Source: a virus. From it: a stretch of DNA of 64,000 nt. The stretch is taken from the IMG/VR virus record IMGVR_UViG_3300044677_000044, positions 33,019 through 97,018 of that record. The stretch is one strand, 5' to 3'. The translations under genes were made by a program, and so were the position numbers. How positions within the stretch are numbered: the first letter of the stretch is position 1; every line of letters begins with the position of its first letter. The notes under the pieces are model-generated. The model was not told the DNA's origin, searched no databases, and saw only the letters and a list, made by a program, of their open reading frames with translations. Of this stretch, positions 3,463 through 26,850 are shown piece by piece.

Positions 3463-6400
3463 TCACTGCGCGTTGGCGGTACGCCGCACGGTCGTCAGCG
3501 CGCTGTCGACCTGGGTGTCGGCGACGCCGGCGACGTAGGCGTGCAGCGTCGGGCCGTCCTGGACGACCAGCGTCACCGCCTGCCCGGGCTGGAAGCCGCC
3601 TGCTGACGGGCCTGCAGCGAGGCGGGTGAGGGCGTTCGCCTGGTCGGTGGTGAACACCGGCTCCGGGGAGCCGGTGCCGTTGTAGGCCAGGTTCAGGCCG
3701 GGCTGGAGGTAGCCGCCCTTGTCGTACCAGTGGGGGGACCGGTCCGACCACTGCGACCAGGCATGCGACGGGGAGCCGTAGCGGCTGTGGATGTAGTCCA
3801 GCCCCCACGTGATCTGGGTGTGGGGGCTGGTTTTCCAGTCCGGGCCGGCGGCGGCCATCTTGGATGCGGGCAGCGACTGGGGGATGCCGTACGCGCCGCT
3901 GCTCTTGTTGAGGGCCTTGTAGTTCCAGCCCGATTCGCCGTTCCACAGCTTGATCAGGGCGGGCATCTCGTTGCCGCCCCAGCCCCACGCCTTGAGCATG
4001 TTGCGGGCCATGGCCTGTGCGGCTGCGGCGCCGGTGCCGTGAACACCGGCGTCCCCTCCCCCGCCGGCCTTCCCTCCGAGTCCGGTGAGGAGCTTCTTCA
4101 TGCCGCCGAGCGCGGCCACGGGCAGGGCCGCGGCCGCCTTCCCCCAGGGGCTGGACGTGAGCGGCTTGAGCTTGCCGAGAACGGGGTTGAGGATCTTCAC
4201 GAGGTTCCCGACCGGGTCGGCCAGGAAGTCCGCGGCGCTCTTGATGCCGCCCCAGGCCGCACCGGCGGCGTTCGACACGGCGCCGCCCGCGGCCTTCGCC
4301 GCGCCGCTGATGGTGCTGGTGATGTCGCCGAAGATGCCGCCGCCGGACAGGAGTTGCGCGCCGGCCTGCTGGAACAGGCCGAGCGCCCGGGTCCGGTACT
4401 TCGGGTCGGTGGGGATGACGTACTCGGGGTGACGGGGGTTGCCCTCGCCGACGATCGCGGTGGGCTTGCTGAACACCCCGGGCCGCATGGGCATCGGGCC
4501 GCCCTGCGCGAGAAGCGGGAGCTTCCCGAGCTTCGGCAGGCCGGGAATCCAGCCGCCGACCTTCTTCCACACGCTGAGGATCCCGTTGTTCCAGACGGTG
4601 TCGATCACGAAGTTGATCGGCTTCTTCGCCGCGTTCTCGATCTTGTCCCAGGTTTTGGCGATCCCGACACTCGTGCTGTCGAAGGCGCTGATGACCTTGT
4701 CGCTCAGGGTTCCCGCCCAGCCCGGGATGGTCTTCGTGAAGAACGTCCCGATCGGGTTGAGGACGTTCTTCTTCAGCCAGGACCAGCCGTCGGAGAAGAC
4801 GCTCTCGATGTTCCCCCAGTAGTGAGTGATCGCCCACACGGTCAGGCCGATCGGGCCGGTGATGATCCCGAGAACAAGCGGCCAGTTTCGGCTGATCCAT
4901 CCCATCAGCCACATGAAGGAGTTGGGGATCGTCTTCGTGAAAAACGGAATGAAGTCCTTCGTGAACCAGGTGACGACCGCCTGCACGGCGATCTGAATCC
5001 CGGCCCAGACTGCCTTCACCGAGTCACGGAACCACGCCCAGTGATTCCATGCCCAAAGGACAGCGGCGATCAGCAAGCCGATCGTGACGATGATGATCAG
5101 GATGATCGCGACGATCGGGTTCCCTGCGAAGGCTGCGTCCGCAGCCAGCGTGGCGGCAGTCCACCCGTCGGTGATCAGCGTGGTCAGCACCACAATCGCG
5201 TTGTAGACGAGGACCGCGCCGTTCCACGCCAGTTGCGCGAGCGTCGCCAGCTTCGTCACGACAAAGATCGCGTAGAGGAGTTGGATAACCCCCGGCGAAT
5301 TGGTGGCGATACTGCCGATGACATCGGCGACGGCTCCCAGTGCCTTCAGCACAGGGCCGGAAAGCGGAGCGGTCGCCTTCCCTACGTCTACAAAGGCGTC
5401 TCCGATCTTCCCGAGGGAGTCGGCGAGTTTCGGGGCCTCCTGCGACGCGTAGTCGAGGAAGTTCTCAAACTTCGGGCTGCCCTTGAGGTTCTTCCCGAAG
5501 TTCGCGAACTTTCCCGTGATCTTGTCCATCCGGGTGGAGATGGTGTTGATGTGCGGGAGGAAAGCGTCAATGATCCCCGCGGCCCCTACGAAGACGTTCC
5601 CGATCGCCGTGCCGACACCGACGATCGCCGGCTGGACCGATGACGCGAAGTCCTTCTTCAGGGACAGCCACCACGGGCTCTTGAAACCCTTACTGACCTT
5701 GTCCTGGAGGGTTTCGATGCCCTTCGCCGCACCGGTGACCAGAGGCGTCAACCCGGGCAGGCTGTTCTTCGCCCCGTCGATCCCGCGGGTGAAGATCGGC
5801 ATGATCTCCGGCTGCAAGTCCCGAGACCAGCCCTTGAACGCCGTCCGGAGATCGAGGAAAGCGTTGAAGGTGGCCCGCGAGCTCGGCGTCAGCTTGTCCA
5901 GGGCCTGCTGGTACTTCTGCGCCGCCGTGGCGCTCGCGTCCGAACCGCTCGCGGCCGACAGCGAGGCCGAAGCGACCTGCCGCTGCGCGCTCGCGATGGA
6001 GTCTGCGGCGTTCGCCTCAGCGTCGCTGACCTTCGCCTGCGCGTCCGCGATGGCCTGGGCGTTCTGCTGCTGTGTCCGTACCTGGGCTGCCTGCGCGTCC
6101 GACAGCGCCTGGGTGCGGTCGGTGACGTTGGCCTGGGCCTGGGCCACGGCGTCCTGGGCCTGCGTATAGGTCGCGCTGCCCTTGACGCCGGCCTTGTTCG
6201 CGGCCGTCGTCTGGTCCTGGAGACGCTTGGTCTGGATCTGCTGCTCGGACAGCGACTGAACGGCCGCGTCGTACGCCAGCTGATCCTGCGCAAGCTGCTC
6301 CGCGGTGACCTTCGCACCAGCGGCCTTGTCTGCGGTGAGCTGCTCCTGCGCGGACGTTACGGCGAGTGCCGCGCGCCGCTGCGCGAGGTCGGCGTCGACC

Positions 6401-7932
6401 AGCTGGTTGTTGAGGTCCTGGAGCTGGTCGGCCGCGGTCTTCCGCGCGGCCACCAGGTCCAACTGGGCCTGCTTCGCGGCCTTCTGCGCGTCGGCGAGGT
6501 CACCCTCGGCCTTCTCCACCGCGCTGTCGGCCTGCACCTGCTGCAGCGCGGCCTGCTGGATCGCGTTGCCCACGGCCTCTCTGGCCTGCTCGATCTCCCG
6601 GGCACCGCTGCGCACCGCGGAGGCAAGAGCCTGCTGAGCCCCGGCCATCTGCAGGGACTGCGAGGCTGCCTGAGCGGCGGCCTGGCCGCTCTTCGCCGTC
6701 GCGGTGGCTGCCGCGTTCTGGGCCTGCTTCTGTGCGTCGAGAGCGCCCTTGACGTCGCTGATCGCGGGAAGGGCAGCGGCGGCGAACGCGCCGACGCCGA
6801 CAGCGGCCGCGGTGAATCCTGCGACCAGGGACCCGGTGCCGGCCGCGAGGACCGGGATCGCCGGGAGCGCGATCAGGCCGGCGATGGCGATCGACACCTG
6901 GAAGATCGCCGACAGTGCCTCCCGGTTGGAGACGTGGAGGTTGATGTCCTTGCCGTCCAGGCCGTCCGCCGCGGCGTCGACCGCGGCGAGCTGCGCCAGC
7001 GCGGCGGCGGTGTCCGCGCGCACCGCGATGTTCGGGGACGACGCGCCGAGCGCAAGCAGCCGGGCGCGGATCTCATCGATCCTCGCCTGCGCGGTCGCCG
7101 CGTCGATGTCGACACCGATGCGCTCATCGGACAGCGCACCCAGCGACGCCCGCAAACGGGCCATCTCCAGTTCCGCGGGGGTGGTATCCACCCGGGCCTG
7201 GATGTTGACGTCCGGCAGGGACGCCTGAGCGCGCTGGACGGCCGCCCGCAGACGGGTAGCCCACGCACCGTCGGTCTCGACCTGGATGTTGACGGCGTTG
7301 GAGGAGACCCGCTCGATCTCCGCCCGGATGTCGGCCAGCGCGGCGCGCGCCGCCGCGGTGTCCGCACGCACCGCGACGTTCGGGTGCGCGGCACCGAGCC
7401 GGGTGAGCTGCGCCTCGATGTCGGCGACCTCGGCGTCGGCCCGGGTAACGTCGACGTCGATCCCGATCCGCTTGTTCGACAGGGTCTCCATGCGGGCGCG
7501 GAGCCGCGCGAGCTCCGCGTCCACACCGGTGTCGGCGAGGCTGACGTTCAGCTTGGGCATCGCCCGGAACGCCTCAACGAGCTTGGCCCGCAGGGTGCGG
7601 GCGAAGGCACCGCCGGCGTCGTCGCCCTGCTTGGACGCGGCGACCTTCGCCTGCTGGCCGCCGATGGTGATGCCCTGCTTGAGGGCGTCCTTCACCGCGT
7701 CCTTGATGCGGTTGGCGATCTCGGTGCCGATCTGCTGGCCGATCGACAGCCCGATGTTGCCGACGGCCCGCTGCATGGCGGGGCCGAACGCCTCACCGGC
7801 GGCCTTGCCCGCGTCTTCGCCGGCCTTCGTCGCGGCCGGCACGAGCGCGTCCCGGAGCCTCTGTTCGATCCCCGTGGTGTTGGGGACGATGTCGACTTCG
7901 ACGGATCCGACACTGATCGGCACGAGGGTCAC
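3463..7932 (-). CDS. Tape measure protein with C-terminal lytic transglycosylase (SLT-like) domain
   Basis: 1489 aa, Ala/Gln-rich helical repeats, hydrophobic middle, C-terminal LIKLWNGESGWNYKALNKSSGAYGIPQSLP...QITWGLDYIHSRYG lysozyme-like motif; follows the tail chaperones. Confidence 0.95.
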   Translation of the reverse strand: MTLVPISVGSVEVDIVPNTTGIEQRLRDALVPAATKAGEDAGKAAGEAFGPAMQRAVGNIGLSIGQQIGTEIANRIKDAVKDALKQGITIGGQQAKVAASKQGDDAGGAFARTLRAKLVEAFRAMPKLNVSLADTGVDAELARLRARMETLSNKRIGIDVDVTRADAEVADIEAQLTRLGAAHPNVAVRADTAAARAALADIRAEIERVSSNAVNIQVETDGAWATRLRAAVQRAQASLPDVNIQARVDTTPAELEMARLRASLGALSDERIGVDIDAATAQARIDEIRARLLALGASSPNIAVRADTAAALAQLAAVDAAADGLDGKDINLHVSNREALSAIFQVSIAIAGLIALPAIPVLAAGTGSLVAGFTAAAVGVGAFAAAALPAISDVKGALDAQKQAQNAAATATAKSGQAAAQAASQSLQMAGAQQALASAVRSGAREIEQAREAVGNAIQQAALQQVQADSAVEKAEGDLADAQKAAKQAQLDLVAARKTAADQLQDLNNQLVDADLAQRRAALAVTSAQEQLTADKAAGAKVTAEQLAQDQLAYDAAVQSLSEQQIQTKRLQDQTTAANKAGVKGSATYTQAQDAVAQAQANVTDRTQALSDAQAAQVRTQQQNAQAIADAQAKVSDAEANAADSIASAQRQVASASLSAASGSDASATAAQKYQQALDKLTPSSRATFNAFLDLRTAFKGWSRDLQPEIMPIFTRGIDGAKNSLPGLTPLVTGAAKGIETLQDKVSKGFKSPWWLSLKKDFASSVQPAIVGVGTAIGNVFVGAAGIIDAFLPHINTISTRMDKITGKFANFGKNLKGSPKFENFLDYASQEAPKLADSLGKIGDAFVDVGKATAPLSGPVLKALGAVADVIGSIATNSPGVIQLLYAIFVVTKLATLAQLAWNGAVLVYNAIVVLTTLITDGWTAATLAADAAFAGNPIVAIILIIIVTIGLLIAAVLWAWNHWAWFRDSVKAVWAGIQIAVQAVVTWFTKDFIPFFTKTIPNSFMWLMGWISRNWPLVLGIITGPIGLTVWAITHYWGNIESVFSDGWSWLKKNVLNPIGTFFTKTIPGWAGTLSDKVISAFDSTSVGIAKTWDKIENAAKKPINFVIDTVWNNGILSVWKKVGGWIPGLPKLGKLPLLAQGGPMPMRPGVFSKPTAIVGEGNPRHPEYVIPTDPKYRTRALGLFQQAGAQLLSGGGIFGDITSTISGAAKAAGGAVSNAAGAAWGGIKSAADFLADPVGNLVKILNPVLGKLKPLTSSPWGKAAAALPVAALGGMKKLLTGLGGKAGGGGDAGVHGTGAAAAQAMARNMLKAWGWGGNEMPALIKLWNGESGWNYKALNKSSGAYGIPQSLPASKMAAAGPDWKTSPHTQITWGLDYIHSRYGSPSHAWSQWSDRSPHWYDKGGYLQPGLNLAYNGTGSPEPVFTTDQANALTRLAAGPSAGGFQPGQAVTLVVQDGPTLHAYVAGVADTQVDSALTTVRRTANAQ

Positions 7933-7950
7933 CCCCTCGCGACTCGATCG

Positions 7951-8729
7951 CTACACGGCGTCCTGCCCCTTGATGAGGCGGAACAGGGCCTCACGGGCCC
8001 GGTCGGTCATCGTTGGCTTCGGATGTACGGCCTTCATCCCGGGGCGCCGCAGCGGCTCCGGCGGAGCCGGTTTACGGGCCTTGCTGTCGAGGTTGGATAG
8101 CACTGTGACGTACTCCAGGCGCCGCAGGGAGTCGACCACCGCGGCGAGCAGTTGCTCGATCTGCGACCAGCGGGCTTTCTCCGGCTCGCCCTTGCTGGCG
8201 TACCCCGCGTACTCCTCATCGGTGAGGTCGTTGCGGAGCGCGGTCATCGTGTGGGATTCCGCGGGCAGGTGCTGAATGATCACGCGGAGGCGGCGCCAGG
8301 TCATCAGGCCGCGGTGGACATCGAGGACGTCCAGGCCGCGCTCGATGAGGTCGGCTTCTACCTCCTCCGGGTGGGCCGCGAGGATCCTCGCCGCCCATTG
8401 GAGTTTCCCAGGTTGTCCCCGCCCACTTCGGATGCCTTCTCCGCGAAGTGGATGATCGCCTTGGGGTCCGGGTCGAGGTCCACGAAGGTGTCGTAGTCGT
8501 CCTCGTGAAGGATGATGTCGAAGAACGTGTCGAAGTCGCTGCGGTTCAGGGCGCGGAACGCGGAGGCGGGCCACCTGGTGGCGGGCAGGGTCCGGACGTC
8601 CTTGGTGACGCCGTCGTGGCCGGCCAGCGGAACCGGGTAGTAGTCGCCGTCGTCGTCTGCGGCGGCCTCCTGGTCCTCGGCCGCGTTAGCGGCGTTCTGT
8701 TCCTCGAGCTGTTGCTTCGTGGTGGGCAT
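7951..8729 (-). CDS. Tail assembly chaperone, long (GT) form made by -1 frameshift
   Basis: The -1 frame (...PGKLQWAARILAAHPEEVEADL...GQDAV*) overlaps the end of the short chaperone at a G GGA AAC heptamer. Confidence 0.85.
8358..8729 (-). CDS. Tail assembly chaperone, short (G) form
   Basis: 123 aa acidic protein between tail tube and tape measure; ends ...DNLGNSNGRRGSSRPTRRR. Confidence 0.88.
   Translation of the reverse strand: MPTTKQQLEEQNAANAAEDQEAAADDDGDYYPVPLAGHDGVTKDVRTLPATRWPASAFRALNRSDFDTFFDIILHEDDYDTFVDLDPDPKAIIHFAEKASEVGGDNLGNSNGRRGSSRPTRRR
8403..8409 (-). other. Programmed -1 ribosomal frameshift slippery site GGGAAAC
   Basis: Plus-strand GTTTCCC = minus-strand G GGA AAC, the canonical X XXY YYZ pattern in the correct phase (CTG GGA AAC). 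Confidence 0.88.
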
Positions 8730-8747
8730 GCGCGGGCCTTTCTCGGT

Positions 8748-8813
8748 CTGGCGCGGGCGGGTGAGATGGAGAGGGTGGCGGGCTGGGCCCGCGCCAGGAT
8801 CGGCCCGCCACCC
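8748..8813 (-). other. Interleaved pair of perfect 11-bp stems (pseudoknot or RNA switch) upstream of the tail chaperone RBS
   Basis: 8748-8758 pairs with 8787-8797; 8773-8783 pairs with 8803-8813 (A-B-A'-B' order). Confidence 0.55.
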
Positions 8814-8829
8814 CGTTCATGGGACCGGC

Positions 8830-9417
8830 TCAGGAGCCGGTGTAGGCGGGCGTGACCGGCACGAAGTCCGTGTGGTAGACGGTGATGTTCGCGTCGTCCG
8901 GGTACGCCGTGACGGTGATGCCGTAGCCGGACATAGTGTCCTGCTTGAACGTCACGTCGTCGCGGTCAGAGATCTCGCCCTGGGGGACGTAGAAGCCGCG
9001 GGCGGTGTCGCCATCGAAGACCACGAACCACCACGCCCGCCTGTCGGGGGTGGGGGCGGCCGTCTCGCCGAAGTTCGTCAGGCCGTCCTCGTCCGGCGCG
9101 AGGTCCGCCGCCGGGATGCGGTACATGATGCTCTGCACCTGCACCCGCGCGGTTTCCCACAGCGTCATCTTGAACGTACGGATGGACTTGGTGATCGTCG
9201 TACGGAACGGCGAGGTCAATCCCCACGGCGTGAACGCCTGGGAGTCCTCATCGAAGCCGTAGACCAGGCCGTCGTCGCTGGTCGCACCGAGGGGTGCGAA
9301 CGGCGGGAGGGGCTGCTCGAGCGGCGACGTGGGCCGCTCCGTTCCCAACGGGCCGACCCACCCCGCCCCGTTGCTTCCGATGACGGTCAGGTCCTGGGAC
9401 CTGTCGATCGTGACCAT
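8830..9417 (-). CDS. Major tail (tail tube) protein
   Basis: ATG 9417 with GGAGG RBS; LGATSDDGLV...TFKMTLWET...YGITVTAYPD is a typical actinophage tail tube; C-terminus ...PAYTGS. Confidence 0.92.
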   Translation of the reverse strand: MVTIDRSQDLTVIGSNGAGWVGPLGTERPTSPLEQPLPPFAPLGATSDDGLVYGFDEDSQAFTPWGLTSPFRTTITKSIRTFKMTLWETARVQVQSIMYRIPAADLAPDEDGLTNFGETAAPTPDRRAWWFVVFDGDTARGFYVPQGEISDRDDVTFKQDTMSGYGITVTAYPDDANITVYHTDFVPVTPAYTGS

Positions 9418-9498
9418 GCGCTGGCCTCCAGACATGCTGAGGCCCCGCACGGCGGGGCCAGGATGGGAAAGAGGGTCCGGCGCGGGCCCGCTTGGCGG

Positions 9499-9882
9499 TC
9501 AGGAGACCGGGTGGAAGAACACTTCGTAGGTGCCGCCGATCTTGCGCAGCGCCGGGTTTTCGTACGGCCGCCACATCGGGGCGCTGACGGTGGAGACCCG
9601 GCCGAACACCGCCTTGGCGGTCTTCACGCCCCGCAGCTTGATGACGAGGTCGTCACGGGCGGCGCGGGCCAGCGCGGACGCATCGGCGCGGGTCAGCGCG
9701 TAAGCGTCGACGTCGATCAGCGCCCGGTCCAGGCGGAACCCGTCGTCAGTGCCGCCGACGCGCTGCACCTGCAGGACCGGCAGGACATCGAGGAGATCCG
9801 CTGGAAGGTCCGTGCACACCCGCACCGTCCTGGTCCCCGTCAGGTAGGAGACCAGTTCGGCCTCCACATCGGGCCACTCCAT
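9499..9882 (-). CDS. Tail terminator protein
   Basis: WPDVEAELV...LPVLQVQRVGG...IDVDAYA pattern; position before tail tube. Confidence 0.85.
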   Translation of the reverse strand: MEWPDVEAELVSYLTGTRTVRVCTDLPADLLDVLPVLQVQRVGGTDDGFRLDRALIDVDAYALTRADASALARAARDDLVIKLRGVKTAKAVFGRVSTVSAPMWRPYENPALRKIGGTYEVFFHPVS

Positions 9883-10214
9883 CAGCCGCCCCCGGCCACT
9901 GCGGCGCGCAGCATGACGTGGTGGGCCGGGCCGCCCTGGCTGTTGCTGTACTCGACCCAGCGGGCGTACGGGGCGACGTTGGTGGCGTAGGCGACGGCCC
10001 GGTCCTGCCGTACGCCACCGTTCTTGGTCGATGTGACGAGGACCGATGCGGCGTACAGGCCGGCGTGCCGGTCGGTCAGCGGGTCACCGCGCGGGGCGAT
10101 CGCCTCGGCCGTGGCCTTGACGAGCCGGGCACGGCGCAGCATCTCGTCCTCTACCATCTGCGAGCGGAGCAGCTGACCGACTCCGGTCCTGCTCATCGTG
10201 AAGCGCGCCGCCAT
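9882..10214 (-). CDS. Tail completion / HK97 gp10-like neck protein
   Basis: MAARFTMSRTGVGQLLRS...YARWVEY...HHVMLRAA; ATG at 10214 with GAGG RBS (C-terminal part of track ORF 9882..10493). Confidence 0.75.
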   Translation of the reverse strand: MAARFTMSRTGVGQLLRSQMVEDEMLRRARLVKATAEAIAPRGDPLTDRHAGLYAASVLVTSTKNGGVRQDRAVAYATNVAPYARWVEYSNSQGGPAHHVMLRAAVAGGG

Positions 10215-10250
10215 GTGCAACCACCTCGTCTGCTGGATCAGGGGGAACTT

Positions 10251-10571
10251 GTGATCGACATCGAGACGGGCACCGGTAGCCGTGTGACCTTCGACGGGCG
10301 GTCGGTGACCATCGAGCGGCTGCGGGGCATCTCGAAGTCCGTGTTCGGTGAGCGGTCGACGGTCGTGCCGGTCGGTCAGATCGCCGCGGTGGAACTGGTG
10401 CAGCCGTCGTGGATGCGCGCCGGCCACATACGGTTCGCTGTGCCCGGGTCGCAGGCCGCCGCGGCCCGTACGGCGGCGAACCGGGATGAGCACGCGGTGC
10501 TGTTCAGCAAGAGCCAGGCCAAGGAGTTCGAGGTCCTGGCGGCCGCGGTGCGCGCGGTGATCAGCCGGTGA
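10251..10571 (+). CDS. DUF4429-like small protein, antisense to the structural operon
   Basis: GTG 10251: MIDIETGTGSRVTFDGRSVTIER...VVPVGQIAAVELVQPSWMRAGHIRFAVPG...DEHAVLF resembles DUF4429 (PH-like) proteins. Confidence 0.65.
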   Translation: MIDIETGTGSRVTFDGRSVTIERLRGISKSVFGERSTVVPVGQIAAVELVQPSWMRAGHIRFAVPGSQAAAARTAANRDEHAVLFSKSQAKEFEVLAAAVRAVISR

Positions 10572-10914
10572 CGTACTCCAGGCTGGCCTCGACCGGGCCG
10601 GTGCTTCCGGTGAACGGCGACTGGTAGTCGCCGCTGCGGCCGTACACGTTGTACAGGACCCCGTCGACGATGACCTGGTCGGTGGCCCGCAGGTCGGTGC
10701 CGGTGGGGGCGTACAGCTTCAGGCCGGAGGTGACGGTGTCCCGGGCGTCCACGACCTCGATAGGGCCTGCGGTCGCAGTGTTGTGGGGCTCCACGGCGCA
10801 GCCTGGGACCTGAATGTTCGTCGGGGCGCCGGGAACGTCGTTGCCGTAGTCGTCGCGGGCTGGCGCCCCCGGGCGGACGATGGTGATCGTCTTACCGTGT
10901 GGCAGGGCGCGCAC
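10561..10914 (-). CDS. Head-to-tail stopper
   Basis: TITIVRPG...DDYGNDV...LYAPTGTDLRATDQVIVDGVLYNVYG pattern. Confidence 0.88.
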   Translation of the reverse strand: MRALPHGKTITIVRPGAPARDDYGNDVPGAPTNIQVPGCAVEPHNTATAGPIEVVDARDTVTSGLKLYAPTGTDLRATDQVIVDGVLYNVYGRSGDYQSPFTGSTGPVEASLEYVTG

Positions 10915-11914
10915 CGGCCGCCACCTCCTCCACCGCCGTGCACCACTGCCCGAGTTCCGCGCCCGGGTCGAGTGTGTCGGCCCGGGTGGTGGCGAGTTTC
11001 GACGCCTGACCGTACGTGGCCGGGTCGTCGAGGTCTTCGATCGCGGCCTGCCACGACGGAAGGTCGGCCCGGTCGCAGAACACCCCAGCTTCGCCGAGGG
11101 ACTCGGCCAGGCCCGGTGTGGGGTGTGCGATCACGGGGATGCCGGAGCTCATGGCCTCCACGCCGACCCGGCCCCACGATTCGTACACCGACGGCATCAG
11201 CAGCAATCGGGTGCGGGCGTACACGTCCTCGCGCATGCGGCGCCCGTCGGTGTGCTCGATGACGGTGACGTTCGGGAGGTCCGGTGGCTCTTGCGGCCCG
11301 TGGCCGCCGATGACCGCGAGGAACCTGCGGTCCGGGTTGGCGCGGGCGAGCGCGGCGAAGACCCCGACGCCCTTGTCCCGGTTGCAGTTGATCAGGGTGA
11401 TGTGGTCGCCGCGGGTGGTGCGGTAGTCCGCGGCCCGCACCGGCGGCCGGACCACCAGCATCCGGCCCGGCCTGCGGGTCCGGCCGTGGAAGTGCTCCTC
11501 GGCTTCGCCACGCATCCACTGGGAGTTGACGACGGCGAGCGCCGTGGCACCGGTGACCAACGGCTTCCACGTCAGGTCGAACGTGTTGTGACAGACCACG
11601 ACCAGGGGCCGGCCGTAGCCGTGGGCGAGCGACGCGGTGACCTGCACCTCGTCCAGGTGACTGACCAGGACGTGCGCCCGGGCCGCGGCTGCGGGGAAGC
11701 GGCTCCCGGCGGCCGCCGGGATGACGTGCACACCGTCCAGGTCGTACGGCTCGCGGCGCCCCGGCGTCCACCGGGACAGCCACACCTGCACGGTGTGGCC
11801 GCGGCCGGCGAGCGCCCGGAGCATCTCGTGGAGCATCCACTCGGCGCCGGCGTTGTGGTCGGGCGGGTAGGCGTGGATCCGGGCCAGGACCCGCAGCACG
11901 GTGGTCATCGCCAC
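10892..11914 (-). CDS. Glycosyltransferase family 4 (GT-B), paralog B
   Basis: HAYPPDHNAGAEWMLHEM N-terminus; PSVYESWGRVGVEAMSSGIPVIAHPTPGLAE GT4 signature. Confidence 0.92.
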   Translation of the reverse strand: MAMTTVLRVLARIHAYPPDHNAGAEWMLHEMLRALAGRGHTVQVWLSRWTPGRREPYDLDGVHVIPAAAGSRFPAAAARAHVLVSHLDEVQVTASLAHGYGRPLVVVCHNTFDLTWKPLVTGATALAVVNSQWMRGEAEEHFHGRTRRPGRMLVVRPPVRAADYRTTRGDHITLINCNRDKGVGVFAALARANPDRRFLAVIGGHGPQEPPDLPNVTVIEHTDGRRMREDVYARTRLLLMPSVYESWGRVGVEAMSSGIPVIAHPTPGLAESLGEAGVFCDRADLPSWQAAIEDLDDPATYGQASKLATTRADTLDPGAELGQWCTAVEEVAAGARPATR

Positions 11915-12531
11915 CTCACCATCGACATGCCGCTAGTGGGCCGGTAGTCCTTCAGCGTGGCCTTGTCCGCGGCGGACATCGTCACGGCCGTGCCGACCCC
12001 GGAGCCGTCGGTGCGGTAGCTATACGGGCCGATCGTCTCGCCGGTGACACCGCCCGCGAGGGTGGGCGCGGTCAGGGTCCGCAGGACCATCGCGGCGACC
12101 ACCGCCACCACATCTTCGGGGACCGCGGCGTCCCCGTAGCTGTAGACGACCCGGTAGGTGCCTGGGTACGCCTCCGCGTCGTCCTCGTACCACTGCTCGG
12201 GGAGGTTGATGACGGGGGTGGCCACGGCGGTCCGGATGATGTCCAGGCCGTCCCACTCCCAGCCCACCACGGGCAGATCGGGTGCACCCCCGGCGCCGAT
12301 CGCCACCACCGAGGTGACGTCCCGGACCGGCTTCTGCGGCAGGCGGATCTCGCCCTGCTGCGCGCGCAGCACGACCGCCTCGTTGTCGGTGCGTGCGAAG
12401 CTCTGCTTGGTGTAGCCGCGTACGAGCGCGGACGCGTCGGCCAGCAGGAACCCTGCGCGGTCGGTTTCAGCGGGGGTCAGGGGCCGGCCGAGCCGGCCTT
12501 CCAGGTCGTCGGTGCTAGCGAGGGGATCCAC
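11905..12531 (-). CDS. Head-to-tail adaptor
   Basis: MDPLASTDDLEGRLGRPL...LLADASALVR...ETIGPYSY pattern; position after capsid. Confidence 0.88.
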   Translation of the reverse strand: MDPLASTDDLEGRLGRPLTPAETDRAGFLLADASALVRGYTKQSFARTDNEAVVLRAQQGEIRLPQKPVRDVTSVVAIGAGGAPDLPVVGWEWDGLDIIRTAVATPVINLPEQWYEDDAEAYPGTYRVVYSYGDAAVPEDVVAVVAAMVLRTLTAPTLAGGVTGETIGPYSYRTDGSGVGTAVTMSAADKATLKDYRPTSGMSMVRWR

Positions 12532-13528
12532 GGCGGCTCACCCCCTCCATGACGGTGGCCCACTGGTCAAGCTCCGCGCCCGGATCGAGCGCGGCCGCCC
12601 GGGCGGTCGCGGCCTTCGACGCCTTCTTGTACGCGGCGGCCCCGGACAGGTGCTTGATCGCGGCCTGCCAGGCCTCGATGTCGTCGCGGTCGCAGAACGT
12701 CCCCGCGTCGCCGCAGGACTCCAGCAGCCCCGGCGTGGGGTGGGCGAGCACGGGGATCCCGGAGCACATCGCCTCGACCGCGACCCGGCCGTACGACTCG
12801 TACACCGATGGCGCGAGGAGGAACCGGGTGCGGGCGTACACGTCCTTCGCCATGCGGTCCCCCGCGGTGTGGGGCACGATCTCCACGTTCGGAAGGTCCT
12901 CACGGACGATCTGGTGCCCGTAGCCGCCGACGACACCGAGGAACCGGCGTTGCGGCATCCGCTCGGCCAGCGCGTAGAAGACCCTGGCGCCTTTCTCCTC
13001 GGTCAGGTTGATCAGCGTGATGTGGTCGCCCGGGGTGGTCTGGTAGTCGGGCACGGCGACCGGCGGGTGCACCGTGATACCCCGCGGCATCGGCCTGTCC
13101 CCACGGTTGCGGCGCCACCACTGCTCAGCGTCGGCCGCCATCCACACGGTGTTGTAGACCGCGAGCGACGGGGTGCCCTTGGCCAGCCACGACTTGGACT
13201 TCTCGAAGGTGTTGTGGAGGAGGTGCACGACCGGGATGTGGTTCATCTCCCCCAGGATCGAGGCCCGCGGGGTGTTCTCCAGGTGCGTGACGATGACCTG
13301 CGCCCGGTGCTCCCCGCGCATCCACGGGCCTGGGTCGGCCTTCCCCCGGAACGGGTAGACGTGGACGCCGTCGATGTCGTACCGGTCCGTGGTGTCCCCG
13401 CGCTGGGACAGCAGGACATCGACGTTGTGCCCACCGGCGGCGAGGTGCCGCAGCAGGCTGTGGGCGGCCCACTCGGCGCCGGCGTTGTGGGCCGGCGGGT
13501 AGGCGTGCAGCATCGCCAGGACGCGCAA
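12515..13528 (-). CDS. Glycosyltransferase family 4 (GT-B), paralog A
   Basis: Likely TTG start at 13528 (GGAG RBS); HAYPPAHNAGAEW; PSVYESYGRVAVEAMCSGIPVLAHPTPGLLE GT4 signature. Confidence 0.92.
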   Translation of the reverse strand: MRVLAMLHAYPPAHNAGAEWAAHSLLRHLAAGGHNVDVLLSQRGDTTDRYDIDGVHVYPFRGKADPGPWMRGEHRAQVIVTHLENTPRASILGEMNHIPVVHLLHNTFEKSKSWLAKGTPSLAVYNTVWMAADAEQWWRRNRGDRPMPRGITVHPPVAVPDYQTTPGDHITLINLTEEKGARVFYALAERMPQRRFLGVVGGYGHQIVREDLPNVEIVPHTAGDRMAKDVYARTRFLLAPSVYESYGRVAVEAMCSGIPVLAHPTPGLLESCGDAGTFCDRDDIEAWQAAIKHLSGAAAYKKASKAATARAAALDPGAELDQWATVMEGVSRRGSPR

Positions 13529-13547
13529 CAGGGGCTCCGTTCTCCGG

Positions 13548-13582
13548 CCGTGGCGGCGGCCCACGGGTTGCAGGCCGCCGCC
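13548..13582 (-). terminator. Hairpin(s) after the major capsid gene (attenuator or processing site)
   Basis: 10-bp stem 13552-13561/13573-13582 with a competing 6-bp stem 13548-13553/13561-13566. Confidence 0.45.
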
Positions 13583-13589
13583 GGGCGGC

Positions 13590-14540
13590 TCAGGACGCGG
13601 CGGTGGTCGCCTGAACGACACCGAACGGCGAGCGGGTCGTCGCGTCGGTGTTGAGGCGGGTCGCCGGGTTGGCCGTGGCGAACGCCGCGCGCATCACGAC
13701 ACGCATCGCGACGGAGTCCTGCTGCATCAGGTTGAGGATGACCCGACCGTCGTCGTCGGAGATCACACCCTCCGTGAACAGCTTCCAGGAGATGTCCTGC
13801 CGGGTGCCGACGATCGCCTTGGACCAGTCGCCCATCAGCAGTTCGGCCTCGGACATGTCCCAGGCGCCGTTGCTGAGTTCGGCCATCGGGTAGCCGTACA
13901 GGTTGCCGCCCGGGGACCCGTTCATGTTCGGCTGGAAGATCGGGATGCCCTGCTCGGAGCGCATACCGGTGAGCTTCCAGTTCAGGCCCGGGCGGGCCAC
14001 GAACCCGTTCACGCCGAAGCCGTCCCGGGTGACGAGCTCGGCGACGGTGGAGACGTCCTGCCCGAAGTCGGTGCCGGCGCCCGAGATGACCGCGTTGCCG
14101 GCGCCGACCGCGGACTGGTAGACGGGCGTCGGCCAGGTGCTCGGCTTGTTCGTGCCGAACAGGGCCGCGCCGTCCAGGAGCGCGCCGATCGCCTCGGTGA
14201 GGCGGGGCCGCACCTGGTCCCAGATCGGGATCTGAGCGTCGTCCAGGTAGGACTCGGGGATGGGGACGATCGCCGCCATCTCCTCGACGATCAGGTCGAC
14301 GTTCTTCCAGTCCTGCGCGCTGGTCTGCTTCAGGCCGGTGTCGCCGCCGACGAAGTACGCGATCGGCATGACGTCCAGGACGGGCTGCCGCTGCGTCTTG
14401 GACGACATCGGCACCTTGCGGGCGAGCTGGAGGATCGCCGACTGCGACGGAAGCTCCTGGATGATCTCTGCGCTCACCGGCTCGGGCACCAGCGGGTCGT
14501 TGCTGGCGTCTCGGCTGATGATGCTGTTGTACGTGGCCAC
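13590..14540 (-). CDS. Major capsid protein (HK97 fold)
   Basis: DPLVPEPVSAEIIQELP...YFVGGDTGLKQTS...EEMAAIVPIPE...NLMQQDSVAMRVVMR; C-terminus ...QATTAAS. Confidence 0.96.
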   Translation of the reverse strand: MATYNSIISRDASNDPLVPEPVSAEIIQELPSQSAILQLARKVPMSSKTQRQPVLDVMPIAYFVGGDTGLKQTSAQDWKNVDLIVEEMAAIVPIPESYLDDAQIPIWDQVRPRLTEAIGALLDGAALFGTNKPSTWPTPVYQSAVGAGNAVISGAGTDFGQDVSTVAELVTRDGFGVNGFVARPGLNWKLTGMRSEQGIPIFQPNMNGSPGGNLYGYPMAELSNGAWDMSEAELLMGDWSKAIVGTRQDISWKLFTEGVISDDDGRVILNLMQQDSVAMRVVMRAAFATANPATRLNTDATTRSPFGVVQATTAAS

Positions 14541-14612: not shown

Positions 14613-15365
14613 TTAGGGCCTTCGGCCGGCCGCGTTGCGGATCCAGTCGTCAGCGGTGACAGGCGCCGCCGACGCGGGCGCCGCGCCGGGGGTGAGGCTC
14701 TCCACCGGCCGCTGGGCCGCCGGAGCAGCCGCAGCCGGGGCGACGGCCTTCAGGTGGGTGGCCAGGGCCTCCGCCCGGGCTCCGATCTCCTCGGCCGTGC
14801 CGCCTCCGAGGAGGTCGATCAGGTCGGGCGGGATGCTGTGCGTCGCCGCGGCCATGAGCCGCGAGTTCGCAGCCTTCGCGTCGGCGAGCTGCTGCTCGTA
14901 CGTCGTCGCCTTGTCGGTCGCCCGCTGGAGCTCGGTCTTTTGCTGCTCCTCGAACTCCTGGTACTTCTGAGCCGCGGTGCGCAGCTGGTCGAGCTCGTCC
15001 TTCGACTTGAAGCCGAGCGCGCCGATGTGCTGGGTCTCGTGCTTGCGGGCCAGCGCCTTCCACTTCGCGACCTCGCCTTCGAGGTCGACCGGGCCGGTGT
15101 CCTTCCCGGCGGGGTCGGTGCCACCAGCGGCGGCCGGAGTGGGCGGGGTCGGTACCGGGACTGCGGGAGCGACGGCCGCCGGGGCCTGAGGCGCCGCGGG
15201 GGCGCCCTGGGCCGACGGCTGCATGAACTGGCCCGCAGCGACGGCCGCACCGAGCATCTGCTGGGCCTGCGCGTCCGGAGACGCGGCAGGGTCCGCGGCG
15301 GGTGCCGCTGCAGGAGCTGCGGGAGTAGGAGCGGCCGGGGCCGCGCCGGGGGTGGGTGTGGACAT
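14613..15365 (-). CDS. Capsid scaffolding protein
   Basis: Ala/Pro-rich N-terminus, KWKALARKHE and EQQKTELQRA coiled coil; directly upstream of capsid. Confidence 0.88.
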   Translation of the reverse strand: MSTPTPGAAPAAPTPAAPAAAPAADPAASPDAQAQQMLGAAVAAGQFMQPSAQGAPAAPQAPAAVAPAVPVPTPPTPAAAGGTDPAGKDTGPVDLEGEVAKWKALARKHETQHIGALGFKSKDELDQLRTAAQKYQEFEEQQKTELQRATDKATTYEQQLADAKAANSRLMAAATHSIPPDLIDLLGGGTAEEIGARAEALATHLKAVAPAAAAPAAQRPVESLTPGAAPASAAPVTADDWIRNAAGRRP

Positions 15366-15377
15366 GATGGGTGACTC

Positions 15378-15500
15378 CCGTGTCGGGGATCGGCGCGCCC
15401 GCCATGTCGGCCGGCGCGGGGTGTGCGGGCATGCAAAAGCGCTCACCGTGTCGGCGAGCGCCAGGGGAAGACGGGCTGCGGCCGGGCCACCGTGTCGGCG
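15378..15500. repeat. Four CC(G/A)TGTCGG direct repeats in the scaffold leader
   Basis: Copies at 15378, 15402, 15446 and 15490; the last two extend to the identical 13-mer CACCGTGTCGGCG. Confidence 0.7.
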
Positions 15501-22948: not shown

Positions 22949-23632
22949 TCAGGCGGTCTGGTGGGTGTGCTCGTTGATGAGGGCGCGGATCGCGTCGGGG
23001 TTGCCGGTGGCGTCGACGTAGCGCTGCATGCGCTGGCCTCCGGCGATGTGCTGGGGTGATCCGAGGCCGGATTCGAGGGGGTGCCACAGGTGGGTGATCG
23101 TGCCGGGGTGCTTGGCGGCGGGGCCGAGGAGGGCGTCAGCGGCGGTGCGGAACGCGGTGTCTTCGAAGCCCCAGCCGGTGAACGCCTCGTCCATGCCGCC
23201 CGCCGCCCACCAGGCGGATGGTTGGATGACGAGGACGCCGCCGGTGGCCCATTCGTGGGCCCAGTCGCTCGGGCAGTCGTCGGCGGGCTGCCCTGCAAGG
23301 TAGGCGGCGGTGCCGGCCTGTGACAGGCCGCGGTACCAGGTGTACGGCAGGTGCAGCACGCCGTCGGTGGCGTCCGCGATCGCGGCGTGGAGGGGCTCGG
23401 CCTGGGGCAGGGTGTCGGCGTCGCAGATGACGACGATGTCGGCGCCGGCGGCCTGGGCTTGCCGTACGCCTTCGTTGCGGCTGCCGGCCCGGCTGAACGG
23501 CTCGTGGGCGCTGTCGACATCGAGGTGCAGCGCGTCGGGCAGCAGCGCTGTCAGGTGGGTGCGGACGGTCTCGTGGTGGGCGTTGCGCTCGGGTGTGCCG
23601 GGCCGCCAGGGGATGACGGCGGCGACGGTCAC
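22949..23632 (-). CDS. GT-A glycosyltransferase (GT2/GT7 galactosyltransferase-like)
   Basis: GTG 23632; VIPWR, FSRAGSRNEG, DxD motif CDAD, GGMDEAFTGWGFED (Glyco_transf_7C-like), HLWH. Confidence 0.9.
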   Translation of the reverse strand: MTVAAVIPWRPGTPERNAHHETVRTHLTALLPDALHLDVDSAHEPFSRAGSRNEGVRQAQAAGADIVVICDADTLPQAEPLHAAIADATDGVLHLPYTWYRGLSQAGTAAYLAGQPADDCPSDWAHEWATGGVLVIQPSAWWAAGGMDEAFTGWGFEDTAFRTAADALLGPAAKHPGTITHLWHPLESGLGSPQHIAGGQRMQRYVDATGNPDAIRALINEHTHQTA

Positions 23633-24222
23633 AGGGCCCGCCACAGGCTCCAGGGCCGGTCGTGGTTGTCGAGGCGTTCCATCTTGAGCCGGCCAGCGAG
23701 GTCGTTCTGGCGTTGGCGGTCCCAGGTGGTGACGTCGAGCCAGGCGGCGCCTTCGGCGGGGTCGTCGGAGGTGGGCCAGTCCAGGGCGAGGGTGCCGCCC
23801 TTCTTGACGATGCCGCGCAGGGCGGTGACGAGGTGCTCGCTGGTGGCGTAGTCGTGGTGGATGAGCACGGCGAGGCACACGGCGGCGTCGACTTTGCGGC
23901 GGCCGAAGTGGTCGGTGAAGTTGTCGCCGGTGGACTGGAACGCGGTCAGGTCTGGGTCGTTGGCGGTGAGGGCGGTGAGCATGTGCTCGGAGGCGTCGGC
24001 GCCGGTCACGTCGTAGCCCAGGGCGCGCAGGGCGATGGAGATGCGGCCGTCGCCGCATCCGAAGTCGAGGACCCGGGCGCCGGCGGGGATGTCGGCGGCG
24101 AGGAGGTCGGCTTGTGCGCGGCCGGATGCCCAGTAGGCGTCTTCGGAGATGCCGCGGGTGGGGTGGATGGAGCCGGCGGCTTCGGGCCGGTCCCAGGCGG
24201 CGATGACGTCGGCGGCGATCAT
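23629..24222 (-). CDS. Class I SAM-dependent methyltransferase
   Basis: ATG 24222; RVLDFGCGDGRI, VTGADASEHML, AVLIH motifs. Confidence 0.9.
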   Translation of the reverse strand: MIAADVIAAWDRPEAAGSIHPTRGISEDAYWASGRAQADLLAADIPAGARVLDFGCGDGRISIALRALGYDVTGADASEHMLTALTANDPDLTAFQSTGDNFTDHFGRRKVDAAVCLAVLIHHDYATSEHLVTALRGIVKKGGTLALDWPTSDDPAEGAAWLDVTTWDRQRQNDLAGRLKMERLDNHDRPWSLWRAL

Positions 24223-24809
24223 GCTCGGCTCTCCACTTCGTGCTCGGCGAGCCAGCGCCGTACTGCCTGGTTCTGGTACGCGTCGTTGAGGGCGTTGTGG
24301 AGCCCGGTTTCCTGCTGGGGGAGGTCGGCGTCGGTGAGGCCGAGGCGCTCGATCTCTTGGCGCAGGTCGTGGGTCCACATCGGGACGCCGTCGGGCAGGC
24401 GCATCATCGTTCCCCAGAGTTGGCACAGGGCGACGTGGTCGTAGGCGCCGTAGTCCGCCCACAGTTGGGGCTCGGGGGTGGCTTGGATGAAGTCCCGGAC
24501 CTCGTTGGCGATGACCCAGTGGGGCTTCACTCGGCTGTCGGCCTTGTCGGGGCCGACCATGGATAGTCCCGGCCGCGGGTAGTGGTTCGGGTGGTTGGCC
24601 ACGTAGGTGTCGAGCGTCGTCTTGCCCCTCATGGGCAGGGACGGCAGGACGTTGCGGACGAGCCAGTCGTTCGCCTTGATCCGTTCCCAGTCGGCGTCGC
24701 TGTTGACGGCGTAGTAGGAGCGGCCGTCGTCGGCGGCCATGCCGATCGAGATGATGTCGATCGTGCTGCCGTCCTCCAGGAACTCCAGGTCGTAGTCGAT
24801 GCCCGTCAC
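24219..24809 (-). CDS. DEDD 3'-5' exoribonuclease (Rv2179c/DUF5051-like)
   Basis: IDYDLEF, LWADYGAYDHVALCQLWG, HNALNDA motifs. Confidence 0.85.
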   Translation of the reverse strand: MTGIDYDLEFLEDGSTIDIISIGMAADDGRSYYAVNSDADWERIKANDWLVRNVLPSLPMRGKTTLDTYVANHPNHYPRPGLSMVGPDKADSRVKPHWVIANEVRDFIQATPEPQLWADYGAYDHVALCQLWGTMMRLPDGVPMWTHDLRQEIERLGLTDADLPQQETGLHNALNDAYQNQAVRRWLAEHEVESRA

Positions 24810-26059
24810 ATCTTCCTCCCGACTCGGATGGTGGTGACGCCGGGTTGGTCGGGCATGTAGCCGTGCGGGTCGATGACGACCGATCCGGGGGCGACCGCGA
24901 GGGTGCGGTGGTGTTCGTGGCGGGTGGCGATGACGTAGACGCGGGGCACGTGGGGAAGGTCGAACTCGCCGTCGACGTGGATGTCCTTGTGGTCGACCTC
25001 AAGGCCTCGCTCGCGGAGCTGGTGGGCGAGGAGGAGTGCGGGGCTGCCACCGGTGAGGTCGGAGCCGGGTTTGTACGCCTTGCCGAGGATGGTGATGCCG
25101 AGGCCGGTCTGCTGGGCCCACTGCTCGGTGAGGTCGGCGAGCCATCCGGACTGGGCTTCGCGGGCGCGGGCCATGTAGCCGAGGACGTCGGTGGACAGGT
25201 CGAGGCGCTGTGCGAGCCAGGACATGGCGATGAGGTCTCGGGGGTGGCAGTGGCCGCCGTCGCCCATGCCGCCGCGCATGTATTTCGGGGAGATGACGCG
25301 GTCGGTGGCTGCGGCGAGGGCGTCGGTGACGGCGTCGCAGTCGGCTCCGGTCTTGTGGCAGATCTCCATGAGCGCGTTGGCGATGACGATCTTTGTGGAG
25401 ATGACGACGTTGTACGCGACTTTCGCGAGCTCCGCGGACTCGATGCCCATGACCTGTGCGGGGCGGTCGTGGAGGGTGCGGTGGATGTCCATCACGGGCC
25501 GGGTGTGGGTGGGGTGGTCGGCGCCGAGGAGGACGAACTCGGGGTTGAGGTAGTCGGCGACGGTGGTTCCCATCGCGATGAACGCGGGGGTGTAGACCAG
25601 CGTCGTGAACTGGTTCAGCAGGGGCCGGATGAGGCGGTTCATCGTGCCGGGCAGGCACGTGGAGACCACGGCGACCGTGATGGGCTTGGCCTGCTGGTAG
25701 GCGGCCCGGCACACGTCACGGACGGCTTGGACGAGGAACTGGTACTCGAAGTCCCGCGGTTCGGCCGGCATGGGCTGCTCGCCGCCGTACTCGGGGCTGT
25801 GCGGGGTCTGCACGGCGACGAACACCACGCCGTCGGTTGCCGCGACCGCCCCGGCTGGGGTGGAGGCGAGTTCGAGGTTGGAGCCGGCGAGGAGCGCTTC
25901 GATGCCGTCTTCCTGCGGGGGTGGTGCCTGGCCGCAGAGGATCTCGTTGGGGCGGGTTGAGGGGTCGTAGCCGACGATGTGGTGCCCGCCGTGCTTCTCC
26001 TGGACCAGGGCGCACACGAGGCCGAGTTTGCCGAGGCCGACCCATCCGATGGTGCTCAC
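24806..26059 (-). CDS. UDP-glucose/GDP-mannose dehydrogenase family protein
   Basis: GTG 26059; Rossmann GWVGLGKLG, AVQTP, AELAKVAYN (catalytic Lys), GGMGDGGHCHPRD (catalytic Cys), ILGKAYKPGSD. Confidence 0.93.
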   Translation of the reverse strand: MSTIGWVGLGKLGLVCALVQEKHGGHHIVGYDPSTRPNEILCGQAPPPQEDGIEALLAGSNLELASTPAGAVAATDGVVFVAVQTPHSPEYGGEQPMPAEPRDFEYQFLVQAVRDVCRAAYQQAKPITVAVVSTCLPGTMNRLIRPLLNQFTTLVYTPAFIAMGTTVADYLNPEFVLLGADHPTHTRPVMDIHRTLHDRPAQVMGIESAELAKVAYNVVISTKIVIANALMEICHKTGADCDAVTDALAAATDRVISPKYMRGGMGDGGHCHPRDLIAMSWLAQRLDLSTDVLGYMARAREAQSGWLADLTEQWAQQTGLGITILGKAYKPGSDLTGGSPALLLAHQLRERGLEVDHKDIHVDGEFDLPHVPRVYVIATRHEHHRTLAVAPGSVVIDPHGYMPDQPGVTTIRVGRKM

Positions 26060-26850
26060 GATGCCTCCCGCTTCCTGAGGACGGCGGCGCAGTACCGCTT
26101 CTCGGGGGTGAGGTACGCGAAGCGTTCGATGGTGAACAGGTCGCCGAAGCGCTGCTCGATGCGTGCCTGGTCGTACCAGTCGGCGTATTCGCCGACCTGG
26201 TCGAAGGCCCGGACGAACCGTTCGAGGACCACGGGGTCGGCGGTGACGTCGTCGGGCGGTTCGGTGCCGGTGGCCTGCCGCCATCCGTGGTCGCTGTAGA
26301 CCATGATCCGGGCGATGCCGTTGGGGCGGAGCAGGGTGTGGGCGCGTTCCATGATCTGCCGGGCCCAGGGGATGTGGTGGAGGACTCCGTTGCAGTGGAA
26401 CACGTCGTAGGAGGCGGGGTCGGCTTCGATGTAGGGCGGTTCGCCGAGCGCCCGGTAGATCGTGAGGGGGCGGTCGAGGCGGAGGCGGGGCGGCATCTGG
26501 TCGGCGTAGAGGCTGAGGACGCGGACGGCCAGGTGCAGGTTGTCGGGGCTGATGTCGGCGAGGTCGACCCGGTTCCCTGCGAGGGCGAGTTCGAGGGCTT
26601 CGACGCCGGTGCCGCATCCGAAGTCGAGGATGTCCCTGTCCGCGGGGTCGTCGAGGCCCATGAGGTCGCGCCACAGGTTGTTGTGGTTGCGCCAGCCCGT
26701 GTACCGGGTGGTCCGCATCTGTTCGACCAGCGCCCGCAGTTCGTCGTTGGGCAGTTCGAGGAGGTCCGCGGAGGGGATGTAGCCGACGTCGTCGACGGGG
26801 GGACGGGACCAGGCGGCGGTCTGCCGGTCGAGGAATCCGGGGTCGGTCAC
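26056..26850 (-). CDS. Class I SAM-dependent methyltransferase
   Basis: GTG 26850; ILDFGCGTG, LADISPDNL, CNGVLHHIP motifs. Confidence 0.9.
   Translation of the reverse strand: MTDPGFLDRQTAAWSRPPVDDVGYIPSADLLELPNDELRALVEQMRTTRYTGWRNHNNLWRDLMGLDDPADRDILDFGCGTGVEALELALAGNRVDLADISPDNLHLAVRVLSLYADQMPPRLRLDRPLTIYRALGEPPYIEADPASYDVFHCNGVLHHIPWARQIMERAHTLLRPNGIARIMVYSDHGWRQATGTEPPDDVTADPVVLERFVRAFDQVGEYADWYDQARIEQRFGDLFTIERFAYLTPEKRYCAAVLRKREAS

Follow-up and report, generated by a model that had tools for sequence, protein, structure and literature searches.

The window analysed here is a 64,000-nucleotide stretch (positions 33,019 to 97,018) of IMG/VR virus record IMGVR_UViG_3300044677_000044, a 98-kb record that is about 91% complete and has a G+C content of about 70%. 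When a capsid alignment was searched against one genome per prokaryote species, the nearest relatives were prophages of Streptomyces species; the host is likely Streptomyces, unlike the Mycobacterium host of phages Che8 and Corndog. The minus strand of the window carries a late operon in the order scaffold, capsid, glycosyltransferase (GT), adaptor, second GT, head closure, neck, terminator, tube, chaperones and tape measure (Table 1). Both GTs belong to family GT4, and two of the structural proteins, the major capsid protein and the major tail (tail tube) protein, end in a Ser on a short tail. We propose that these tails, QATTAAS on the capsid and TPAYTGS on the tube, are probably tags for O-glycosylation by the phage, and that the invariant closing Ser is the most likely residue of attachment.

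An earlier note on this DNA had read the ends of the capsid, tube and tail terminator proteins as ...VVQATTAAS, ...VTPAYTGS and ...FHPVS. The open reading frames (ORFs) and the DNA gave the same ends, and Pfam and PHROG family searches backed all three protein identities. The capsid protein showed a profile match over the whole HK97 fold together with a solved relative, the nearest being 8EDU (E 2e-100). The tube protein was assigned as a siphophage tube by PF25681, by phrog_117 and by the position of its gene upstream of the tail chaperones and the tape measure. The conserved capsid core stopped at ...SPFGVV (residue 309), after which exactly 7 residues remain, so that the chain closes as ...GVVQATTAAS (GCG ACC ACC GCC GCG TCC TGA). 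The end of the tube protein is encoded by TAC ACC GGC TCC TGA. In an AlphaFold model of the tube (mean predicted local distance difference test score [pLDDT] 74), the last strand spanned residues 192-196 and was followed by a 10-residue coil; the capsid model, built from a 12-row alignment, was too poor (mean pLDDT 52) for reading the exposure of its tail. Both tails lie outside the conserved fold. The head-tail adaptor encoded between the two GT4 genes ends ...MSMVRWR, without a Ser tag.

By a rough gene call based on G+C at third codon positions, 10 of the 93 genes in the whole 98-kb record (about 11%) end in Ser. The chance that two named proteins would both do so is about 1%, a post hoc figure. 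Ser after small residues was also found, probably by chance, at the end of three non-virion or unknown proteins of the same phage: a 126-amino-acid ORF just past the holin (...SAKGAGS; L374 12468-12848, outside the window), a DNA methyltransferase also outside the window (...EAGAAS; L374 1313-2734), and a 204-amino-acid ORF of no known family at 42020-42634 of the window (...TFGGTAS). As candidates for further tagged virion proteins these three were rejected, because they are not recognised virion proteins.

GT4 enzymes are retaining glycosyltransferases of the GT-B fold. The two in the head-tail block, one following the capsid gene and one following the adaptor gene, are 54% identical to each other, and both gave Pfam GT4 domain matches above cut-off. 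The EX7E motif reads YESYGRVAVE in the post-capsid paralogue and YESWGRVGVE in the post-adaptor paralogue, and it was present in 135 of 137 GT4 homologues. The post-adaptor paralogue also matched Corynebacterium MshA (3C4Q/3C48) weakly, over the C-terminal domain only (E 1.4e-6). Both Pfam domains, EX7E and similarity to a solved GT4 place the enzymes in the CAZy family, and judged by sequence they look active. The likely start of the post-capsid gene is GTG at 13555 or TTG at 13528, the latter preceded by GGAG; the start of the longest ORF, at 13621, would overlap the capsid gene. The starts and stops of the GT4 genes overlap the adaptor and head closure genes within the same late operon, and therefore the enzymes should be made alongside the head proteins. 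We considered whether the GT4 enzymes glucosylate DNA or serve lysogenic conversion, and rejected both ideas, since the gene position and the overlap with head genes speak against them and neither would explain the co-varying tails described below.

We collected related loci with their flanks from IMG/VR, where the queries were the capsid, the GT4 and the tube (one search with the tube sequence alone, another with a tube alignment), and further loci from one genome per prokaryote species (capsid alignment as query) and from GenBank phages. Prophages with an about 80% identical capsid and the GT4 pair occur in the culturable strains Streptomyces sparsogenes ATCC 25498 (L306), S. griseoflavus JCM 4479 (L328), S. 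mirabilis JCM 4551 (L350) and S. prasinopilosus NRRL B-2711 (L309). The window's own capsid family is termed family A; family B is about 28% identical to it. At GT4-bearing loci, the tail tube ended in Ser in all 83 distinct sequences. Among distinct capsid sequences from such loci, the last residue was S in 32 of 33 in family A (T in 1) and in 51 of 60 in family B (T in 9). The tail measured 7 residues beyond the core in every GT4-bearing family-A capsid, and positions -2 to -6 of capsid and tube tails drifted. Where family-A lineages had a lone GT4 (six lineages), it resembled the post-capsid paralogue, and the lone GT4 of all 40 family-B phages resembled the post-adaptor paralogue; either paralogue by itself accompanies Ser tags on capsids and tubes. 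In the head closure protein, the terminal residue is Gly in 68 of 68 relatives and thus equally invariant, so that invariance alone proves nothing.

The comparison with relatives lacking GT genes, which the earlier note had proposed as a check, came out for capsid and tube as that note predicted. Ser proved near-universal at the ends of capsid and tube in GT-bearing relatives, as opposed to about 10% in GT-less ones. GT status was established over the whole record for 36 long records with profiles PF13692, PF00535 and phrog_1721: the 27 GT4-bearing records had GT4 alone, 8 GT-less records had none of the three profiles, and 1 had Che8-type GTs instead. In the prophage set, GT-less meant that tblastn with a chosen GT panel gave none at most 8 kb from the capsid gene. 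With family-A capsids dereplicated at 92%, a Ser end was found in 34/40 GT-bearing capsids (37/40 with S or T) versus 4/40 GT-less capsids (Fisher p 7e-12, uncorrected for shared descent). The GT-less capsids ended ...GVLKTA, ...GIIAT, in a long charged extension or, in distant prophages, in P, A, V, E or G. In a GT-less sister clade from IMG/VR (L083-L118; 55-60% identical to the window capsid), an 80-100-residue charged C-terminal extension rich in Arg, Ser and Glu replaces the 7-residue tail.

The capsid tree showed about four (3-4) independent gains or losses of GT genes, and the last residue changed to match in all four. These were the origin of the large GT4 clade, the GT loss in L079, the GT loss in the charged-extension clade, and, independently of these, the acquisition of a Che8-type GT cluster by Solirubrobacterales prophages with the capsid ends ...EEQGS or ...ESQGS. 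The last-named prophages (L334, L336 and L341) carry multi-gene clusters with a phrog_1721-type GT after the capsid gene and are nested among GT-less relatives ending in P, E or D; the tube-like protein of L334 ends ...APEGS.

A Ser end recurs on the capsids of families A and B, of the L144 type, and of Che8, Corndog and TurkishDelight, and on several unrelated tube families (...YTGS, ...EMGFS, ...FDALGS, ...NWGYS, ...TATTS, ...APEGS, ...SDGS and ...KGDS). This recurrence on unrelated proteins is a stronger argument than the raw contrast given above. Locus L144 (= G028; 4466-8841) has a tube 73% identical to that of the window (...PAEPAS) and a capsid of another family (...DDGTGS), and GT2 and phrog_1721-type genes, spanning about 2.7 kb, lie in the capsid-adaptor slot that is occupied by GT4 elsewhere. 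It is a cassette swap in which Che8-type enzymes replace GT4, with the Ser ends kept. In the experimentally glycosylated phages Che8 and Corndog, the Ser ends are present as well: the capsid and tube end ...NKTGS and ...YSDGS in Che8, and ...PLVGS and ...IKGDS in Corndog. These Che8/Corndog-type Ser ends were kept in all 74 cluster-F records, and the gp110-type GT was present in 49 of 50 tested. In low-GC viral contigs (L024-L032/L036-L040), GT4 homologues that are 30-42% identical to those of the window adjoin capsid genes; in one such group, the capsids end ...ALAQGSA or ...AQGSGS and the tubes ...GTVASS.

In Che8, the glycans are reportedly O-linked at the C-terminus of the capsid and tail-tube subunits, a finding attributed to Freeman et al. 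2023 (Cell Host Microbe 31:1216). Virion O-glycosylation in mycobacteriophages is assigned to Che8 gp108-110 and Corndog gp35-38 (cited through PMC12363180 and PMC11256854), and PMC12363180 terms the Che8 gp110/Corndog gp38-type GT essential. Like the window phage, both phages encode their own GTs, and their capsid and tube are both Ser-ended. The window also shares a GT of the gp109/gp37 family (phrog_1721) with them and has methyltransferases. However, a homologue of gp110/gp38 (phrog_854) was not found in the whole 98-kb, about 91%-complete record (no tblastn match at E<=0.01 and no profile match at E<=0.1). The methyltransferase module (Corndog gp35 and the C-terminal half of Che8 gp108) gave no match by tblastn with gp35 or gp108, with no phrog_6608 profile search made, and the two class I methyltransferases of the window come from other families. 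No sequence similarity was detectable between the GT4 enzymes that co-vary with the tags and the enzymes of Che8 and Corndog. Furthermore, the GT genes of those phages lie at the genome end, whereas the GT4 genes of the window lie inside the head-tail block, and most relatives of the window carry GT4 alone. The window system probably works like those of Che8 and Corndog, using another enzyme family.

The Streptomyces phage TurkishDelight (NC_073473) was the sole GenBank phage with a match to the window GT4 at E<=1e-10 (38-40% identity). The matching protein, gp20, is annotated as a glycosyltransferase and is encoded between the capsid and the major tail protein. Both of these proteins are Ser-ended, as in the window phage (capsid ...SPGSTS; tail protein ...FCVAS), although their families differ from those of the window. 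In gp20 (L121 8959-10995; 678 amino acids), two GT4 modules, each 35-40% identical to the two window enzymes, are fused, whereas the window has separate genes, and the EX7E pattern was found in the C-terminal half only. The fusion hints that the two GT4 paralogues work together physically.

Two bacterial systems offer further comparisons. GtfA/GtfB is a cytoplasmic pair of paralogous GT-B-fold proteins that forms the O-GlcNAc transferase for serine-rich-repeat adhesins in Gram-positive bacteria; GtfA is a GT4 enzyme, GtfB is non-catalytic, and the pair acts on Ser hydroxyls within long Ser-rich repeats. In contrast, both window paralogues keep EX7E, and the proposed target is a single terminal Ser. 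In Pseudomonas aeruginosa 1244, PilO/TfpO O-glycosylates the C-terminal serine of pilin, which is a precedent for a glycan on the last residue of a polymerising surface-filament subunit. PilO/TfpO works in the periplasm as an oligosaccharyltransferase and draws on a lipid-linked glycan, whereas the window GT4 enzymes are proposed to be cytoplasmic and to use nucleotide sugars; no sequence relationship between them is known. TfpO is mentioned in PMC13445384.

In the mechanism that we propose, the GT4 enzymes would be produced in the cytoplasm together with their capsid and tube substrates and would move a sugar from a nucleotide-sugar donor onto the tail serine. The target Ser would close a flexible tail that, in each of the two polymerising subunits, protrudes after the last strand. 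Further enzymes are encoded in a second block, upstream of the terminase. This block comprises a gp109-type GT, a candidate GT, two methyltransferases and a dehydrogenase, and it probably extends and methylates the glycan. The gp109-type GT (22949-23650) matched the Che8 and Corndog enzymes by tblastn, with E 5e-12 for Corndog gp37 and E 1.5e-7. At the N-terminus of the candidate GT, PF00535 matched below threshold (E 0.008). The dehydrogenase probably supplies a uronic-acid donor; its PF03720 match was under the cut-off (26.8 vs 30 bits). No gene of phrog_1721 or GT2 type was present in any of 27 related GT4-bearing records, which suggests that the block, at least as regards its GT genes, was added in the window phage specifically.

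Table 1. Late-operon features and second glycan-related block, in window coordinates. SAM, S-adenosylmethionine; aa, amino acids.
Feature	Position	Strand	Matches and remarks
Major capsid protein, HK97-type, 316 aa	13590-14540	minus	PF05065 E 3e-25 (residues 17-293); phrog_10 E 2e-44
Capsid tail QATTAAS, residues 310-316	13593-13613	minus	Ser316 codon 13593-13595; stop 13590-13592; proposed glycan acceptor/recognition tag
Major tail (tail tube) protein, 206 aa	8830-9450	minus	PF25681 E 1e-16; phrog_117 E 1e-37
Tube tail TPAYTGS	8833-8853	minus	Ser206 codon 8833-8835; stop 8830-8832; proposed glycan acceptor/recognition tag
GT-A, GT4, post-capsid paralogue	12515 to about 13555	minus	Glyco_trans_1_4, Glycos_transf_1 and Glyco_transf_4 above cut-off; phrog_26352 E 2e-108
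GT-B, GT4, post-adaptor paralogue	10892-11914	minus	Pfam GT4 domains above cut-off; phrog_26352 E 3e-128
Tail terminator, 127 aa	9499-9882	minus	phrog_123 E 2e-17; ends ...FHPVS; Ser127 codon 9502-9504
Head-tail adaptor	11905-12531	minus	phrog_137, phrog_442; between GT4 genes; start overlaps GT-A stop
Head closure protein	10561-10914	minus	phrog_501 E 1e-18; start overlaps GT-B stop; ends ...EYVTG
Scaffold protein	14613-15446	minus	
GT-A-fold glycosyltransferase, Che8 gp109/Corndog gp37 family	22949-23650 (5' end approximate)	minus	phrog_1721 E 1.5e-29
Class I SAM methyltransferase	23629-24291 (5' end approximate)	minus	Methyltransf_23, _25, _11
Rv2179c-like exoribonuclease domain protein	24219-24809	minus	
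UDP-glucose/GDP-mannose dehydrogenase family enzyme	24806-26110 (5' end approximate)	minus	PF00984 E 4e-20; PF03721 E 6e-13
Second class I SAM methyltransferase	26056-26811 (5' end approximate)	minus	Methyltransf_12, _23, _25
Candidate GT-A-fold glycosyltransferase, 218 aa, weak	26847-27503	minus	phrog_14945 'glycosyltransferase' E 2e-6

The earlier note had taken the terminal serines of all three proteins, capsid, tube and terminator, to be acceptors of the phage GTs. For the capsid and the tube this is supported by correlation: their Ser tracks the GT genes, and Che8 and Corndog are alike in this respect. For the terminator the evidence differs. At GT4-bearing loci its last residue was S in 72 of 87, the remaining 15 having A, P, D, H, V or T; the terminators of several GT-less relatives also end ...HS, and those of Che8 and Corndog are not Ser-ended. 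A role of the terminator Ser as a putative glycan acceptor is not specifically supported.

Several observations weigh against our proposal for the capsid and tube. The whole case is built on co-occurrence, which would fit a Ser that is the attachment atom and a Ser that is part of a recognition tag alike. The independent contrasts within one family are few; relatives inherit their traits jointly, and with only about four contrasts the sign test (p = 0.125) cannot reach significance. GT-less members were found neither in the tail-tube family at >=61% identity nor in the Che8 capsid family, and the GT-less calls in the prophage set, made with the 8-kb tblastn panel, may miss unrelated or distant GT genes. 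The tube of L078 ends ...TATTN and that of L021 ...NMTP, and the distant low-GC GT4 loci L036-L040 (30-33% identity) lack a Ser/Thr tail. The capsids of L310, L314 and L316 end ...AGSV or ...GSA, and those of a low-GC group ...QGSA, all with Ser at position -2. A terminal residue may also be invariant for structural reasons, as the Gly of the head closure protein illustrates, and the upstream Thr residues (position -7 of the tube; the TT of the capsid tail) are well conserved too and may be the real acceptors.

The last point leads to the alternative that survives best, although we consider it unlikely: the tails are glycosylation tags, and the closing Ser serves recognition alone, perhaps through its small side chain and its free carboxylate, the sugars being placed on upstream Thr or Ser residues (the TT of QATTAAS; the T or Y of TPAYTGS). 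Thr occupied position -7 of the tube in 81 of 83 sequences and position -4 of the family-A capsid in 27 of 33. Myrna, the third phage known to be glycosylated, has a tube-like gp123 ending ...RTTTV and a gp117 ending ...TYTGP, without a terminal Ser; in the 49 kb examined, its capsid gene was not recognised. However, 18 sequences have no other Ser/Thr in the last six residues (e.g., VGAAAGS, VAAPAGS, EVEEHMS and TPADPLS), the last residue being the sole one in 1 of 33 family-A capsids, 6 of 60 family-B capsids and 11 of 83 tubes. Moreover, the Ser is kept at -2 in L310, L314, L316 and the low-GC group (...GSV, ...GSA), and therefore it is the Ser itself that is conserved, not the chain end.

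It is improbable, to a greater degree, that Ser and GT are linked by common descent only, with the Ser serving structure or assembly and the GT4 acting on the host envelope, on lipid or polysaccharide, or on DNA. The small number of gains and losses in the capsid tree, the equally invariant Gly of the head closure protein, the terminator Ser shared with GT-less relatives and the untagged capsids beside distant GT4 genes in L036-L040 all speak for this reading. Against it stands a Ser end that recurs in unrelated capsid and several unrelated tube families, accompanies either of two GT families unrelated to each other, and disappears where GT genes are absent. The tail is outside the fold, and apart from the Ser its positions drift. 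Translation of the GT genes is coupled to that of head genes, which does not suit lysogenic-conversion enzymes. Least probable, and very improbable, is a non-sugar modification of the Ser tag (phosphate, a glycerol- or ribitol-phosphate polymer, or acyl) or a first step performed by host enzymes: the donor is not readable from sequence and GT-less phages with matching capsid and tube tails exist (Muddy, GEGEGE; ReT1v-2, TTP/TTGP), so that shared tails need not mean phage-encoded glycosylation, but the genes that co-vary encode genuine GT4 sugar transferases in which the catalytic motifs are present, and glycans are what Che8 and Corndog, the closest systems characterised so far, attach.

The capsid and tube of one phage may share a tail motif where no GT is annotated or found (L150, L151, L356 and L360). 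In the Mycobacterium phage Muddy (L150), the capsid (6658-7647) ends ...GGSGEGEGESE and the tube (9552-10193) ...GGGGEGEGEGE. In the Rhodococcus phage ReT1v-2 (L151), the capsid (4929-5882) ends ...VPDTTP and the tube (7679-8278) ...EVTTGP, and in L356 the two end ...SPAESHDE and ...SPVESHS. Such paired tails may be common to actinophage particles in general and serve purposes other than phage-encoded glycosylation.

A wider proposal, which we hold tentatively and with a little less than even belief, is that a closing Ser on a short flexible tail is a portable, general glyco-tag that many unrelated capsid and tube families have gained independently. At least two enzyme families with no relation to each other, GT4 and that of Che8 gp109, would recognise it and could take each other's place at one genome position. 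The tag would range well outside the mycobacteriophages, to prophages of Streptomyces and other actinomycetes, to Solirubrobacterales and to low-GC phages. If the glyco-tag is general, the matching tails of the GT-less phages Muddy and ReT1v-2 would point to further tail-based surface chemistries.

If the Ser tag is the acceptor, sugar-coated phages, and the proteins that are coated, would be predictable from sequence alone, and a 7-residue tag together with one GT4 gene could be transferred to glycosylate other phage particles. Shielding from antibodies is a reported effect of the glycans in Che8, and shielding of this type would give the system relevance to phage therapy. If our proposal is true, virion glycosylation is not confined to a few mycobacteriophages: it would also occur, by way of another enzyme family, in a very large group of prophages from Streptomyces and other actinomycetes.

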